Assembly (NCBI GenBank): GCA_965202625.1
Contig: CBDBBI010000010.1
Coordinates: forward strand, 992,001-1,056,000
Reading direction: 5' to 3'
DNA length: 64,000 bases
Source: a bacterium
Lineage (GTDB): Bacteria > UBA8248
Part shown: one piece after another, positions 23,417 to 38,099 of the stretch
Position numbering within the stretch: position 1 is the first letter of the stretch
Layout: each line of letters opens with the position of its first letter
Notes under the pieces: model-generated
Seen by the model: the letters and a program-made list of their open reading frames with translations, nothing else
Databases searched by the model: none
What the model was told of the DNA's origin: nothing
Translations under genes and position numbers: made by a program

Positions 23417-23437
23417 AATGAACACGGAGGCCGCTTG

Positions 23438-23710
23438 ATGAGCCGAGCGCTGGTGATGGACTCAAAGGACAATGTGGCCACCGTGCTTGAGGACATCGCT
23501 CCTGAGCAAGACGTAGAAATTGAGGGTGGTGAGAAAACATGGACGATCCGCGCTACGGAAACGATTCCTTTTGGCCATAAAATCGCGCTGCGAAAGATAT
23601 CCGCAAACGCGAAAGTGCTCAAATACGGCGAAGTCATCGGCGCCGCCACACAAAGCATATCCCCTGGCAGGCACGTCCACGTCCATAACATGAAGAGCAC
23701 CCGAGGCTAA
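23438..23710 (+). CDS. UxaA-family dehydratase small (SAF-domain) subunit
   Basis: DNVAT, IPFGHKIAL, KYGEVIG, HVHVHN. Confidence 0.88.
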   Translation: MSRALVMDSKDNVATVLEDIAPEQDVEIEGGEKTWTIRATETIPFGHKIALRKISANAKVLKYGEVIGAATQSISPGRHVHVHNMKSTRG

Positions 23711-23714
23711 GCAC

Positions 23715-24893
23715 ATGCCCAGGAAAAGGGGCGCTCCCACCTTTTGGGGCTACAGAAGGCCGCAGGGACCTCCGGGAGGCCGGAATCACCTGGCCATCGT
23801 CAGCGCCATGGACAATTCAAACCCCATCGTTCGCAGAATTGGCGCACTAGTGCGAGACACCACGTCTGTTAACACGTCATTCGGACGCGCACTTATGGGC
23901 GAGGACGCGGAACAGCATTGGCGGGTGATGGGGCATACCGCCGCCCACCCGAACGTAGGCGCCGCCATCATCGTCAGCCTCGAGCCCAAGAGTGCGGACG
24001 CCATCGCGGAAGTCGCTGCGAGAACCTCGCCCTGGATGCCCTTAGAGTCCGTGAACATCCAGCAAACCGGAGGCACACTCACCACAACTGCCCATATCAT
24101 CGAAATCGCCAAGAAACTCTTAGCCCACCTCGCGTCCGCCAGGCGCGTTCGCTGCGAGTTGAACGAGCTCACCATCGGCGCAGAATGCGGGGGGTCGGAC
24201 ACGACGAGCGGCGTCGTCTCAAACCCCGTGACGGGAATGGTCGCCGACAGGGTGGTGAGAGCGGGCGGGTCGGTTATCTTCTCCGAGACGCTGGAAATTG
24301 TGGGGGCCGAGCATTTACTCGCCCGCCGGGCCGCGGACAGAAAAACCGCCCGGAGAATTATCACTTCCGCGAAACGCGCCGTCGACTACGCCGCAAACAT
24401 CGGCGTAGATTTCATCGGTTCGAACCCGGCCCCGGACAACATCAGGGGTGGGCTTTCGTCCATTGAGGAAAAAAGTCTGGGCGCCATCAAGAAAGCGGGA
24501 GAGCATCCCATCGTCGAGGTCGTCGGCGTAGGCGAACGTCCCTCGAAAAAAGGCGTCATCTTCGCCGATGCCCCTTGCGCCGGCGTGGAGAACATCTCCT
24601 CGCTTGCAGCCAGCGGCGCGCAGGCGATTATTTTCTCGACAGGAATCGGAAATCCCATCGGACATCCTGTCTCTCCCACCATCAAAGTGACTGGGAATCC
24701 TCGGACCGCCCGGGCGATGGCCGAGAACATTGACGTGGACATCAGCGGCGTCATGGAGGGAAAGATGCGCATTGACGAGGCGAGGGATTTGCTCGAGAAA
24801 GAACTCATTGACGTGATGAGCGGAAAACTCACCACATCGGAGATTCTGGGCGAGACGGAACTCACGGTCAGCCGGGCCGCGCTCAGCCTCTGA
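23715..24893 (+). CDS. UxaA/GarD/SuyB-family dehydratase or lyase large subunit
   Basis: GYRRP..GGRNH, ECGGSD, NPAPDNIRGGLSSIEEKSLG, FSTGIG. Confidence 0.88.
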   Translation: MPRKRGAPTFWGYRRPQGPPGGRNHLAIVSAMDNSNPIVRRIGALVRDTTSVNTSFGRALMGEDAEQHWRVMGHTAAHPNVGAAIIVSLEPKSADAIAEVAARTSPWMPLESVNIQQTGGTLTTTAHIIEIAKKLLAHLASARRVRCELNELTIGAECGGSDTTSGVVSNPVTGMVADRVVRAGGSVIFSETLEIVGAEHLLARRAADRKTARRIITSAKRAVDYAANIGVDFIGSNPAPDNIRGGLSSIEEKSLGAIKKAGEHPIVEVVGVGERPSKKGVIFADAPCAGVENISSLAASGAQAIIFSTGIGNPIGHPVSPTIKVTGNPRTARAMAENIDVDISGVMEGKMRIDEARDLLEKELIDVMSGKLTTSEILGETELTVSRAALSL

Positions 24894-24941: not shown

Positions 24942-25454
24942 CTAAAAACCCATTCCCACGATGAGTCGATTCCAGGTGTTAATAAGCGCAACGGTGCCAA
25001 ATAGTTCCACTATCTGCGTTTCTGAGAAGTGCGCCCTCAGCGACTCAAAAGTCTCATCCGAGACGCTCACGCCCTTCGTACTCTCCTCGCAAAGGCGCAA
25101 CGCCGCTTTTTCCCTCTCATCAAAGAGGTCGCTCAAGGAACCCTCTTGTGCCGCCTTCGTCTTCTCGTCCCCCACCTTGCGCATCCGCGCCATGTTGGAA
25201 TGCATGTTCACACAAAAATGACATCCATTGAGCACCGACGCGCGAATGTTCAGCACCTCCTTGAAGCCGACGTCGATCTCTCCCGGGCCATCCGCCACCG
25301 TGGTCAAGCTCAGCAGCGAGCGCAAAAAGGCCGGCTTATGGGCCAAAGCTTTCACCGGAGGAATCACAACGCCGAATTGTTTTTGCAAATTCTCCATGAT
25401 GCGCTTCGCCGACGCTTCCGCCTGCTCCGGCTCCAACAAGGAAATACGCGCCAT
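24942..25454 (-). CDS. Carboxymuconolactone decarboxylase/AhpD-family protein
   Basis: KEVLNIRASVLNGCHFCVNMH, EREKAAL, HFSETQIVEL; ATG at 25454 after AAGGAGG. Confidence 0.85.
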   Translation of the reverse strand: MARISLLEPEQAEASAKRIMENLQKQFGVVIPPVKALAHKPAFLRSLLSLTTVADGPGEIDVGFKEVLNIRASVLNGCHFCVNMHSNMARMRKVGDEKTKAAQEGSLSDLFDEREKAALRLCEESTKGVSVSDETFESLRAHFSETQIVELFGTVALINTWNRLIVGMGF

Positions 25455-25696
25455 TTCATCCTCCTTATATTGATTTTCGTATGAATATACGCCTGCGCAT
25501 GAGAGACATTCCATTTTTCTCACACTGATATTTACGCCACCTTGACATCCCCATCAATGAACGCCCCAAAACCATTCAACGATGAGCGCAAATGAGCAGG
25601 AAGCGTAAAATATCCTCTTCTGCTAGATTACCACACCTTGTACTCTCCGCTTACCCAGGCGTGCGCCTTAAAACGCAAGAAGGATGAAAACTGCCT

Positions 25697-26524
25697 ATGA
25701 ACAAGCGAATTTCCCTGTGGCAAGCCGCTTCTCTCATCAAGGATGGAGACACCATCAGCCCTGGCGGCACCCTTCTGCACAGAACGCCCTCCGCCCTCGT
25801 GCGCGAAATCGCGCGCTCACGTATCCGGGGGCTGACGCTCATCAAACCCTCTCCTGGCTACGACGCCGACCTTCTTTGCGCGGCGGGGGCTGTGAGCAGG
25901 GTGGTCAGCGGCATCGTCACGTTTGAAGCGGAATTCGGGTCGGCGCCCCATTATCGAAAGGCGATCGAAAAGGGATTGGCCGGCCTTACCGAACACGCCT
26001 GAGCTAGTGTTCTCGCCGGGCTGCGGGCCGCAGCCTACGGCATCCCCTTTCAGCCCATCCGTGGGTTCAAGGGGAGCGATATACCGGAGCAAAGCGGCAT
26101 CTTTACGATCGAAGATCCATACACGAAAGAGGAGCTCTACGCGATTCCCGCCATGAAGCCGGACTGGGCGTTAATTCACGCCCCAAAATCAGACGCGCAG
26201 GGAAACGCCCAAATTCTGGGCAACCAGCATTTCGACGTCGAAATGACGCGCGCGGCGCAAAAGGGGGTGATCCTCACGGTCGAGAAAATCGTAGCCCCGG
26301 AAGAAATTGCATCCGAGCCCGAGCGAACAGCCATTCCAGGTTTCCTCGTAAAGGGGGTTGTAGAAACGCCAGGCGGTGCCTCGCCTTGCAGCTGCCATCC
26401 GTCCTATGGGGTCGACAAAGATGAAATGGACCGCTACATAGCCCTGACCCAAAAAGAGGGGGGACTCGAGGAGTATCTTGCGAGCACGGATAAAACGGGC
26501 GCGCAAGATGGGACGACGAAATGA
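25697..26524 (+). CDS. CoA-transferase-fold subunit A (GctA/IpdA-like); candidate selenoprotein with in-frame TGA at 26000-26002
   Basis: ORFs 25697-26002 and 26153-26524 share a frame. Read-through gives ...LTEHA*ASVLAGLRAAAYGIPFQPIRGFKGSD...IEDPYT...PAMKPDWALIHA..DAQGN, a continuous 275-aa family member. Confidence 0.8.
26015..26041 (+). promoter_or_regulatory. Bacterial SECIS-like hairpin
   Basis: GCCG-GGCTGCG[GGC]CGCAGCC-TA-CGGC: 11 bp with a 2-nt bulge; starts 12 nt after the TGA; G-rich apical loop about 23 nt from the TGA. Confidence 0.55.
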
Positions 26525-27279
26525 CGAAGGGTAATCGCGTCACATCGCTGCCCGAACACGTAATTCGCGCTGGCAACCAAATGGCCGTCTCGCTCTCGCG
26601 CCTCATTGAGGACGGGAAAAAAGTCTTCCACGGAGTCAACTCGCCACTTCCGATGGTCGCGATTTTTTTGGCCCAAAAACGACACGCCCCCCACTGCGTG
26701 CTCATTGAAGTTGCCGGCTCCGTGGACCCGAAACCACGCTTTATGCCAAAAAGCACAGCCGATCCCGAACTATGCTACGGCGCGGCCTCCCTGTTCTACA
26801 ACCCAGACACTTACGATCTTTTCGCGCGCGGCGGAATAGACCTCGCCTTTCTGGGCGCTGCCCAGCTCGACAAGCAAGGACGCGCCAACATGAGCTACAT
26901 CGGCAACCCTATTCACCCGAAAGTCCGTTTTCCTGGCGGGGGAGGAGGCGCCGTCATCATGCCCCAAGTAAAGCGAACCGTCATTTGGCGAACGACACAC
27001 GATAAGCGATTTTTCGTGCCGAGGGTGGACTTTTCAACCCAATCCGGAAACCTCAGCCACGTGATAACGCCCATCGCCGCACTTGAAAGAAAACCAACAG
27101 GGCTTGAAATCTCTAGCGTTCACGCTGGTCACTCAATGGATGAAGTGATCGAGAAGACCGGGTTTGGCTTGCAACGTCCAAGAATTGTTGCGCAAACCGC
27201 CCCGCCGAGTGCCGAGGAGCTGGAGGCTTTGGGTGAACTCGACCCGGACGGCGTGCGTTTTTCAGAGTTCCGCATATAA
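26521..27279 (+). CDS. CoA-transferase-fold subunit B
   Basis: FLGAAQLDKQGRANMSYIG, VRFPGGGG, HDKRFFVPRVDF; ATGA overlap with subunit A. Confidence 0.88.
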   Translation: MTKGNRVTSLPEHVIRAGNQMAVSLSRLIEDGKKVFHGVNSPLPMVAIFLAQKRHAPHCVLIEVAGSVDPKPRFMPKSTADPELCYGAASLFYNPDTYDLFARGGIDLAFLGAAQLDKQGRANMSYIGNPIHPKVRFPGGGGGAVIMPQVKRTVIWRTTHDKRFFVPRVDFSTQSGNLSHVITPIAALERKPTGLEISSVHAGHSMDEVIEKTGFGLQRPRIVAQTAPPSAEELEALGELDPDGVRFSEFRI

Positions 27280-27367
27280 GTTTCGTAAACTACGGAAAAT
27301 GGGGAGTCGCTTCATTCCCCACCTCCCTCTGGGGGCCTTGCAGAGTGGCGGATTCAGGAGGATTCAC

Positions 27368-28009
27368 ATGGACAATGCATTGGTGCATCATCTGAGGAAC
27401 TACTCGACCTGTCAGGCGGCGGACGCCTTCGACAAATTAAACATCAAAGGCCATATGCCCGACATTGTCCTGCTCTCCCCAGACCCTGATTACAGAATGG
27501 CGGGAGAAGCGCATACCGTTCAGATGATTCCCGCCGGTGGCGGGAATCTGTCCAAACGAGAGACCCACCACATCGACGCGGCACCTGAGGGGAGCATCGT
27601 CGTCATCAGCGTCCCCTTCGGGGTGACGACGGCCAACTGGGGCGGCATGATGAGCACGCGGGCGAAGGCGATGAGACTGGGCGGGGTCGTCCTTGACGGC
27701 CGGGCTAGGGACATCGAAGAACACCGCCGGATGGGATTCCCCGTGTTCTCCAAGGGCATATCGGTTCATGGCAGCGGAGGATACACGGTCCCCAGCGGCG
27801 TGGGGCTCCCGATCAACTGCGGGGGCGTTGCGGTGAGGCAGAGGGACATCATCTTGGGAGACGTCAACGGCGTGGTCGTGGTTCCAAGGGAGAGGCTCAA
27901 GGAGATCATCGAGAAAATGGATGAATTGGCAAGAATTGAAGAAAAAATCATCCACGAGCTGGAAAGCGGCGCGCCCATCGGCGAAGCGTTCGAGAAGTAT
28001 CGAGGCTAG
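27368..28009 (+). CDS. RraA/HMG-CHA aldolase family protein
   Basis: ADAFD, MAGEAHTV, WGGMM, DGRARD, GDVNGVVVVP; AGGAGG RBS. Confidence 0.85.
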   Translation: MDNALVHHLRNYSTCQAADAFDKLNIKGHMPDIVLLSPDPDYRMAGEAHTVQMIPAGGGNLSKRETHHIDAAPEGSIVVISVPFGVTTANWGGMMSTRAKAMRLGGVVLDGRARDIEEHRRMGFPVFSKGISVHGSGGYTVPSGVGLPINCGGVAVRQRDIILGDVNGVVVVPRERLKEIIEKMDELARIEEKIIHELESGAPIGEAFEKYRG

Positions 28010-36340: not shown

Positions 36341-37285
36341 ATGCTCGGCGAAGCGACCAAAAAAGAATTAAGCGAAAAACATTACAACGCTACCCTTGCG
36401 AACATCGTGTGGCAGCATGAAACGTTGGCGTGTTTTCGGGTAAAACCCGACTTTGATTTTCCCCAATACAAATCAGGTCAATATACGACGCTGGGCCTTG
36501 GCAACTGGGAGCCTCGCCACAAGGACGCCGTCAAGGAAGGAGAACTTGATGAGAAAAAAATAAGGCGATTGGGCAGGCGCGCCTATTCCGTGTCCCATCC
36601 TGTGCTCAACGAGGCGGGCGAACTCTACCCAGCCGAGCATTTGGACTTCTTAGAATTCTACATCGTCATGGTGACTGGCGTGGAAAGCGAACCCGCCCCT
36701 CTTCTCACCCCAAGGCTCTTTCTCTTAAAAGCCGGCGATCGCATTCATATGGGTCAAAAATTCACGGGCGAATATACGCTCGACTGCATGAGCAACATTC
36801 GGGACAACGAGGACTCTTTCGTCATCTTCGCCGCCACAGGAACTGGAGAGGGCCCGCACAACCACATGATTTGGGAGCTTCTTCGCACCGGCTACAAAGG
36901 CCAGATCGCCAGCATCAACGTCGCGCGATACAAGAAAGACCTCGCATATGAGCCCCTCTACCGGAAGCTCGAGAAGAAATACCCAACCCTCTCGTACCAC
37001 ACGCTCACCACGCGCGAAACGGATACCATCCACAACAAGGTATATGTGCAGGATTATCTGGCCTCGGGCGCATTCGAGGAGAACATGAGTCGCAAGATGG
37101 ATACAAAAAACACGCATCTGTTCTTATGCGGCAACCCCGCGATGATCGGCATCCCCAAAGTTCATGAAGGCAACAAGATATGGCCCGAAGGGGCGCCGGG
37201 CGTCATCCAAATCATGGAAGATCGCGGCTTCACGATGGACTACGGCCGGACGAAGGGCAACATTCACTACGAAAAATACTGGTAA
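36341..37285 (+). CDS. fpr: Ferredoxin--NADP(+) reductase (bacterial FPR type)
   Basis: GQYTTLG, RRAYS, LTPRL, ATGTG, LCGNPAMI, C-terminal EKYW. Confidence 0.85.
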   Translation: MLGEATKKELSEKHYNATLANIVWQHETLACFRVKPDFDFPQYKSGQYTTLGLGNWEPRHKDAVKEGELDEKKIRRLGRRAYSVSHPVLNEAGELYPAEHLDFLEFYIVMVTGVESEPAPLLTPRLFLLKAGDRIHMGQKFTGEYTLDCMSNIRDNEDSFVIFAATGTGEGPHNHMIWELLRTGYKGQIASINVARYKKDLAYEPLYRKLEKKYPTLSYHTLTTRETDTIHNKVYVQDYLASGAFEENMSRKMDTKNTHLFLCGNPAMIGIPKVHEGNKIWPEGAPGVIQIMEDRGFTMDYGRTKGNIHYEKYW

Positions 37286-37341
37286 GACCACAAGTTTAGG
37301 CGTCACCTCAGCTCAAACAGACAAAATTCGCAGGAGAGCCG

Positions 37342-38099
37342 ATGCCCACTCTGATTCAGAAAGACAAAGGCGTGTTCTCCACCTTGAAATTCAACCGAAA
37401 AGACGTTCGCAACGCCATCAACGAAGAAATTATGCAGAGTCTCTCCGATACCATCCACACCCTCAAGGCATCGCGCGGGCGATGAGGCGTTCTGCTCGGG
37501 CGGCGACTTGAAATGGCTTCAAACTTTTGAATCCCGTAAGGCGTAAGGACGGCATGTCCATGAGTAGGCGCATGCAGACGATACTGAGACGCCTTTCTTC
37601 ATTGCCGGTACCCGTCATCGCCATTCTGAATGGATACGCCCTCGGCGGCGGCGCTGAAATCGCCATGGCCTGCGATATACGGATCATGGAGGAACACGCC
37701 TATATACGCTTCAAGCAAGCGCGCGTGGGCCTCATGCCGGGTTGGGGAGGCAGAGGGCGGGTCCTCCGTGCGGTCGGCTATGGACGAGCGATCGAATTAT
37801 TGACCACTTGCAAAGACCTCCACCCTGAAGACCCACTGGAAATGGGACTCGCCAACACCGTTGTCCCCAAGGGAGACGGTCTCCGCGTCGCTAAAGCGAT
37901 GGTGGGGGAAATCGCTAAAAGCGCTCCCGGAGCGATTCGCTCTCTGAAGGAATTACTCTTGTTCGGCCTGGAAAATACACAGGAGAAAACAGCGAGTGCA
38001 GAATCATCGCTGCTTGCGGAGCTTTGGACGTCTCAGGATCATGGCGAGACGATAAAAGCATTTTTTGAGAAGCGAAGCCCCGACTTCAAGGGAAGATAA
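37342..38099 (+). pseudogene. Enoyl-CoA hydratase/isomerase, frameshifted twice
   Basis: Three frames: MPTLIQKDK..FNRKDVRNAI (stop at 37485); AGDEAFCSGGDLKW; ..PVIAILNGYALGGGAEIAMACDIR. A 7-bp tandem duplication CGTAAGG lies at 37535-37548. Confidence 0.8.

Follow-up and report, generated by a model that had tools for sequence, protein, structure and literature searches.

Two of the closest described relatives of the gene pair reported here have the fold of a class I coenzyme A (CoA) transferase without being transferases. IpdAB, the COCHEA-CoA hydrolase of steroid ring catabolism, is portrayed in an excerpt of one study as a two-subunit CoA-transferase fold lacking CoA-transferase activity (PMC5380842), and in an excerpt of another it cleaves the ring by retro-Claisen hydrolysis (PMC6678751). 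AibA/AibB, the 3-methylglutaconyl-CoA decarboxylase (5mzw-5n03), is a non-transferase in which the canonical glutamate of the beta subunit is replaced; an excerpt of a third source gives Cys56 of AibB as the residue that stands in for the catalytic Glu of Gct (PMC7756340). Glutaconate CoA-transferase GctAB (1poi) and other class I CoA-transferases have the same fold, with PF01144 in both subunits. Almost all catalogued prokaryotic selenoproteins are thiol-type redox proteins (PMC13188914). The subject of this report is an alpha-beta gene pair of the CoA-transferase fold in a 64,000 nucleotide (nt) stretch of a bacterial genome (assembly GCA_965202625.1, contig CBDBBI010000010.1, positions 992,001 to 1,056,000 of the forward strand; termed the window below), in which the alpha gene is crossed by a single in-frame TGA. 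Judging from the conservation of this codon, the RNA hairpin behind it and the decoding machinery of the genome, the TGA at 26000-26002 is almost certainly a selenocysteine (Sec, U) codon. The whole reading, in which the gene encodes a genuine selenoprotein alpha subunit of a non-classical CoA-transferase-fold enzyme with Sec at the active site, is very probable. The features that it involves are as follows.

25697..26524, + strand: alpha subunit of a predicted CoA-transferase-fold heterodimer, 275 amino acids with Sec at codon 102 (PF01144, translation)
26000..26002, + strand: in-frame TGA, the predicted Sec codon (U102), aligned with Glu105 of IpdA
26521..27279, + strand: beta subunit, 252 amino acids, translationally coupled to alpha (PF01144, 68.2 bits; cut-off 23)

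With TGA taken as U, the frame from 25697 to 26524 is open for 275 codons and codon 102 (26000-26002) is its sole internal TGA. The terminal TGA of alpha (26522-26524) overlaps the ATG of the beta gene (26521-26523), and the translation contains the motifs EHA-U-ASVLAGLRAAAYGIPFQP, DPYT and DAQGN. The original prediction, made from the letters of the window, had described an alpha gene broken by this one codon, with these family motifs and a stop coupled to subunit B, and re-reading of the frame bore out each of these points.

The alpha subunit matches Pfam CoA_trans (PF01144) at 77.9 bits against a cut-off of 23. Its best solved relatives are IpdA of Rhodococcus/Mycobacterium (6co6, 6coj, 6con; E about 2e-31, with an alignment spanning residues 2-271), followed by AibA 5mzw (E 6e-31) and GctA 1poi (E 8e-27). 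In IpdA 6co6/6con the residue opposite the Sec is the Glu of 'REMDEGM', and entry 6coj differs from 6co6 at exactly this column, with Ala in place of Glu; the IpdA alignment that had been proposed for this region is thereby recovered, its X column being the Glu that 6coj marks. Placement of the Sec at the active site is thus likely from alignment to the solved structures. Where IpdA has Glu105 the present family has Sec or Cys; the residue is Gly in AibA and Ser in GctA. A survey of the wider family, limited to its 150 best cluster representatives, counted 69 with Glu at this column, 26 with Cys, 14 with Gly, 13 with Asn and 7 with His; the 26 with Cys flag an uncharacterised Cys-type branch of the family. 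In NCBIfam the specific transferase models scored far under their cut-offs and no selenoprotein model matched alpha.

The best solved relatives of beta are AibB (5mzw_D, E 2.5e-31) and GctB (E 6.5e-19), and IpdB is absent from its matches at E <= 1e-3. The catalytic-Glu column of beta is marked by AibB Cys56 and by the Glu of 'YESG' in a His-type locus (L049). All 39 full-length beta subunits aligned from the Cys/Sec (C/U) clade described below have Val or Ile there. The Glu that adjoins this column in the Nitrospinota clade is Asn in other clades. Since the catalytic beta Glu (the ExG of the GctAB type) is absent, the enzyme is not a classical CoA-transferase. AibB carries Cys56 where the present beta carries Val, and the Sec or Cys here lies in alpha; the thiol or selenol is thus on the other subunit than in AibAB. 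A further difference from IpdAB is that steroid-catabolic neighbours (EchA20, FadA6) are not found at the locus.

By its matches, the predicted heterodimer adopts the class I CoA-transferase fold, and its nearest relatives are the non-transferases IpdAB and AibAB. A phylogeny of 160 rows, computed with FastTree only, places 141 rows in a C/U clade with a support of 100, separate from the Glu-type rows, and by this placement the alpha-beta enzyme is a separate Cys/Sec branch of the family.

Conservation of the TGA and of the Cys column

The TGA occupies one column (EHA-U) in 39 loci; a Nitrospinota-type clade accounts for 36 of these and a betaproteobacterial-type clade for 3. Some of the 39 duplicate one another, with identical proteins, and they do not count as so many independent cases. 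Among 61 genomes searched, exactly one TGA was present in 30 matches from 29 genomes, at 64-100 % identity. All 29 genomes belong to the family of the window's genome, of which 37 genomes were searched, the window's own included. Upon retrieval of the orthologous loci the TGA stood at the EHA-U column in 29 of 29. No stop interrupts the further paralogues in these genomes, the second at 43-53 % and the third at 34-40 % identity. A scan of species genomes returned the TGA in 6 of 12 loci, three of them labelled Nitrospinota, Nitrospinaceae or Tectomicrobia and three of a distinct clade, namely two 'Betaproteobacteria' metagenome-assembled genomes (MAGs) and one labelled Streptomycetaceae. All four metagenome loci likewise carry it. 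The locus labelled 'uncultured Streptomycetaceae' (L039) has a TGA gene 84 % identical to those of the two Betaproteobacteria-labelled MAGs and groups with them; its label may reflect mis-binning.

The codon is also supported outside this assembly. A contig from an independent DNA run of another study (X5) covers 25686-26277 with zero differences, and the TGA is therefore not private to the assembly.

Of 105 homologues from the database, 75 have Cys at this column, 10 His, 6 Glu, 2 Ser and 1 Asn, and the remaining 11 are truncated gene calls that start just past it. Conversely, a 101-amino acid fragment on record (P0125) ends at the Sec column. Public records thus mis-annotate the alpha gene, either splitting it into two fragments or listing it as a truncated 'hypothetical protein'. 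The expectation that related subunits carry Cys at this position is therefore well founded, and in place of the Trp that had been considered as a contrary outcome the homologues have Cys. Thirty Cys loci were compared, 24 of which are paralogues from the window's own family. The closest relatives of the betaproteobacterial-type TGA clade, from Comamonas, Delftia and an Alcaligenaceae MAG, also carry Cys. Sec occurs in two separate clades of the FastTree phylogeny, in which well-supported branches force at least two changes.

The downstream hairpin and the selenocysteine machinery

A hairpin resembling a selenocysteine insertion sequence (SECIS) follows the TGA within the coding region. Its parts are listed below.

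26015..26041, + strand: SECIS-like hairpin (fold; frozen synonymous sites in Sec orthologues)
26015-26018/26038-26041, + strand: lower stem of the hairpin
26019-26025/26029-26035, + strand: upper stem of the hairpin
26026-28, + strand: tip of the hairpin, GGC (GGGCC with the closing G-C pair open)

Folding recovered the element as it had been described, as an 11 bp hairpin (7 + 4) with a G-rich loop that starts 12 nt after the TGA; a 2 nt UA internal loop separates the two stems. The strong evidence for it is comparative, not thermodynamic. In 29 Sec orthologues the synonymous entropies of codons 108-114 (26018-26038, upper stem and tip) are 0 to 0.36 bits, as against about 1 to 1.7 bits in the flanking codons. 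No other run of seven codons in the gene is as conserved in its nucleotides (0.114, the gene mean being 1.79; rank 1 of 259). The same seven codons in 25 Cys paralogues, which encode nearly the same peptide, score 1.485 against 1.52 and rank 121 of 259. Since the Cys paralogues vary these codons freely and the Sec orthologues freeze them, the hairpin is not a mere by-product of the GLRAAA codons, a possibility that had been raised at the outset.

The hairpin variants seen are GCA to GCG, which changes U-A to U-G and keeps the pairing, and GCC to GCT in the loop. Across the 36 Nitrospinota-type loci the upper stem is invariant apart from the one U-A to U-G change. The lower 4 bp stem is not conserved and is mismatched in several loci, so that the element is taken to consist of the upper stem and tip alone. 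Mean minimum free energies (MFEs) are -15.9 kcal/mol for Sec loci and -11.4 kcal/mol for Cys loci, with overlapping ranges, so that this difference is weak by itself. An Rfam scan of 25900-26200 gave no match to a SECIS family. The same region contains a match to the S4-Clostridia leader at 26125-26193 (+ strand), inside the alpha coding region, which at 18.8 bits of the 37.5 needed was taken as chance.

The prediction presupposed a Sec machinery, and the genome (3.09 Mb, 99.7 % complete) possesses selA with selB adjoining, selD and tRNA-Sec. All the refuting conditions named at the outset, this one included, were decided on the side of Sec. The selD gene itself has one TGA at the classic position and is thus of the Sec type. 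There are 13 further in-frame-TGA matches in the genome, 7 with a CMD domain and 6 of the AhpC-TSA class, with CxxU, UxxC or UxxU motifs, which indicates that Sec decoding is heavily used; one Prx-like gene has two TGAs. Examples of Sec-type genes outside the window, each of the CMD/AhpD, AhpC-TSA or selD class, are the following.

Contig C10, 1312453-1312674
Contig C10, 1628410-1628646
Contig C10, 2352058-2352291
Contig C10, 1123071-1123430
Contig C10, 2204515-2205511

Measured from the U of UGA, the tip GGGC of the alpha hairpin lies at nt 26-29. In 5 of the 7 CMD Sec genes of the genome a hairpin tip GGUC lies 24-28 nt from the U, and the tip in selD is GGA. In its position and its G-rich make-up the tip of the alpha hairpin therefore resembles those of other Sec genes of the genome. 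The CMD/AhpD-like (CxxU) and Prx-like (UxxC) selenoproteins share with alpha a UGA at a Cys column, a G-rich tip ~25 nt downstream and the same machinery; however, alpha does not have a thioredoxin- or AhpD-like redox fold and has no CxxU/UxxC.

Of the three genomes with the betaproteobacterial-type TGA form, two have selA; it was not found in the third (G062), for which completeness is not given, and this is no evidence of absence.

Proposed function and alternative explanations

In the proposed mechanism, SelB with Sec-tRNA(Sec) would recognise the hairpin at 26015-26041 and decode UGA-102 as Sec, and the full-length 275-amino acid alpha would then pair with the translationally coupled beta. 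The selenol(ate) may act on an acyl-CoA-type substrate as nucleophile or as acid/base; possible reactions would be retro-Claisen-type C-C cleavage, hydrolysis, or acyl transfer via an acyl-selenoester. Sec could do faster what Cys does in the paralogues. In the Nitrospinota-type lineage the enzyme would probably function in one pathway with an RraA-like aldolase, and perhaps a UxaA-type dehydratase and a CxxC AhpD-like protein belong to the same pathway (all three are described below). A selenolate acting on an acyl-CoA-type substrate is favoured because the alpha family has no UxxC/CxxU motif, the Sec stands at the IpdA catalytic column and the Comamonas Cys locus has a CoA-ester context.

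As judged from its sequence and relatives, the family is new among selenoproteins; the phenomenon is a known one, the fold an unexpected one. Table 1 of the 2026 inventory of 119 prokaryotic selenoprotein families/subfamilies, which describes itself as the most comprehensive, contains no CoA-transferase, PF01144 or IpdAB-like family (PMC13188914). Neither 'CoA' nor 'transferase' occurs in the main text of the BSepDB paper or of the deep-Sep paper, no such family is mentioned in the tables of PMC9312934 or the main text of PMC8318568, and among the titles returned by a full-text literature search for selenoprotein or selenocysteine with CoA transferase or glutaconate none concerns such a protein. 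These negatives cover neither supplementary tables nor the BSepDB database itself, and a prior computational listing is possible. More tentatively, in a claim that as a whole is less likely than not, the protein may be the first class I CoA-transferase-fold selenoenzyme, performing non-redox carbon chemistry in which a selenolate replaces the IpdAB-type carboxylate, through thiolase-like C-C cleavage or acyl-selenoester transfer, with a Cys-to-Sec switch that occurred at least twice. With Sec in the catalytic column of an enzyme like IpdAB/AibAB, the use of selenium would reach into acyl-CoA and C-C bond chemistry, and the natural Sec/Cys pairs within single genomes offer a measure of what selenium buys.

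Several observations weigh against the selenoenzyme reading or parts of it. The stability of the hairpin alone is modestly unusual (MFE of a 46 nt stretch -22.3 kcal/mol, z = -2.18, equalled by 4 of 200 shuffles), and because the stem is invariant compensatory covariation is not countable. In the betaproteobacterial-type Sec loci the hairpin is shorter and weaker (MFE -9.6 to -12.0 kcal/mol in a 36 nt window) and no more stable than those of Cys loci; with this weaker hairpin and an adjacent ATG, a split gene is less well excluded there. Contigs from RNA libraries (X7, X8) cover both sides of the TGA, yet none spans it and parts of the stretch are uncovered. The role of IpdA Glu105 as the catalytic residue of IpdAB, reportedly described by Crowe et al. 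2018, has indirect support here from 6coj only. The absence of UxxC/CxxU and the non-invariance of Cys61 and Cys233 neither support nor exclude a redox role. Additionally, a neighbourhood conserved enough to reveal the substrate was not found, as it differs among the Nitrospinota-type, g2-genus, Comamonas and Cys-paralogue loci.

The main rival for the mechanism, though an unlikely one, accepts the Sec as real and denies that it is the catalytic nucleophile. It would instead serve as a switch, redox or regulatory, or as a ligand of a metal or substrate, or the chemistry of the enzyme would have nothing to do with that of IpdAB; examples would be a selenenyl-sulfide bond to Cys61 or Cys233, or recycling by the CxxC AhpD-like neighbour. 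Most known selenoproteins are redox proteins (PMC13188914). A divergent CxxC CMD/AhpD-like gene is conserved beside the Sec gene, a DUF255 thioredoxin-domain gene lies downstream, and both cysteines are common in the C/U clade (Cys61 in 118 and Cys233 in 123 of 141 rows). However, neither cysteine is invariant, no other second Cys is, and UxxC/CxxU motifs are absent from the alpha family. The column is presumably catalytic in IpdA and is Glu in 69 of the 150 family representatives. Furthermore, the fold is that of acyl-CoA enzymes and the Comamonas Cys locus lies among CoA-ester genes.

That the gene is split, with translation stopping at the TGA and the C-terminal two thirds made separately to give a three-piece enzyme without selenium, is very improbable. 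Gene callers did report C-terminal proteins of 166-171 amino acids and the N-terminal protein of 101 amino acids, and an ATG directly follows the TGA in the 3 betaproteobacterial-type loci, with a GTG three codons on in 2 others. In 34 of the 39 loci, however, at least 19 codons separate the TGA from the first in-frame start (ATG/GTG/TTG), and in 19 of these loci the distance is 57 codons, which puts the start past the conserved GLRAAAYGIPFQP, a segment in which amino acids are kept while flanking codons vary. The break also falls exactly on the Cys column of the family, and synonymous sites frozen in this way are the mark of an RNA element and not what a start site would leave.

Leaky decoding of UGA exists in bacteria, and the TGA could on this basis be read through by a near-cognate tRNA (Trp, Cys or Arg) with no selenium involved. 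This is extremely improbable given the complete and heavily used Sec system of the organism, the conserved hairpin at SECIS distance, and the use of TGA as a stop elsewhere, the end of the alpha gene included. A pseudogene or assembly error, with the TGA arising from a recent inactivating mutation or from a mis-called base, can be dismissed as next to impossible, for although a lone nonsense codon in one genome has the look of a fresh pseudogene, the same TGA occurs in 39 loci down to 64 % protein identity, the independent DNA run agrees, and the frame past the TGA is under amino-acid conservation.

Neighbouring genes and other observations

The genes adjoining the alpha-beta pair in the window are listed below.

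27368..28009, + strand: RraA-like / HMG-CHA-aldolase-fold protein, 213 amino acids (PF03737, 108.3 bits)
24942..25523, - strand: CMD/AhpD-like protein with CxxC, divergent (PF02627)
23435-23710 and 23715-24893, + strand: split UxaA/GarD-type dehydratase, SAF small subunit and large subunit, respectively (Pfam SAF, GD_AH_second, GD_AH_C)

The RraA-like protein scores below the cut-off of all NCBIfam models (TIGR02798, 71.9 vs 304.5 bits; NF006731, 78.9 vs 179 bits), and its solved relatives are 3k4i, 2c5q and 3noj. Only the general RraA-like fold is established for this gene, the test for a LigK-type equivalog having failed. For the analysis of neighbours, 35 Nitrospinota-type loci were searched (L007-L035, L044, L046, L048). 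An RraA-like gene lies downstream of beta in 28 of them, and some of the misses are contig ends. It is absent beside the Sec loci of the g2 genus, the betaproteobacterial-type Sec loci and the Cys loci of Comamonas and Delftia. The 'aldolase partner' of the original prediction thus holds as a conserved neighbour in the Nitrospinota-type clade and fails in these other groups, and the link is a hint at a lineage-specific pathway, not a property of the family.

The CMD/AhpD-like gene is found beside the Sec gene in 31 of the 35 loci. Its best NCBIfam match is NF053654, 'YciW-related (seleno)protein', at 83.6 bits (cut-off 310). As a CxxC protein it could be a reductant or repair partner of the selenol. 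The dehydratase, which lies upstream of the Sec operon, is kept within the genus, and its large subunit is seen in most same-genus loci; its matches to TIGR03248 are far under the cut-off. 

Other members of the family have different surroundings. In the g2 genus (L031 in G023, L033 in G035 and L035 in G031) the Sec alpha-beta pair adjoins a tandem Cys alpha-beta pair and not the CMD or RraA-like genes. The Comamonas Cys locus is flanked by genes for a type III CoA-transferase, an enoyl-CoA hydratase and an acyl-CoA synthetase. Within the window's own genome, the Cys paralogue (L070, C10:1779683-1790429) adjoins two Amidohydro_2 genes and an Ig_CycH-domain gene, and a third paralogue of 35 % identity (L071, 1317926-1328684) has UbiD-like, cyclase and luciferase-like monooxygenase genes as neighbours. 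It may be that several small-acid or aromatic-product pathways draw on this fold.

Sixteen other long frames of the window that are interrupted by TGA were scanned against Pfam, and no domain in them spans a TGA. Elsewhere in the window, an enoyl-CoA hydratase-like open reading frame at 37527-38099 (within 37164-38099, + strand) lacks the N-terminal third in frame, for which a frameshift, a truncated gene or a mis-set start is possible, and covers positions 72-250 only of the 251 of ECH_1.

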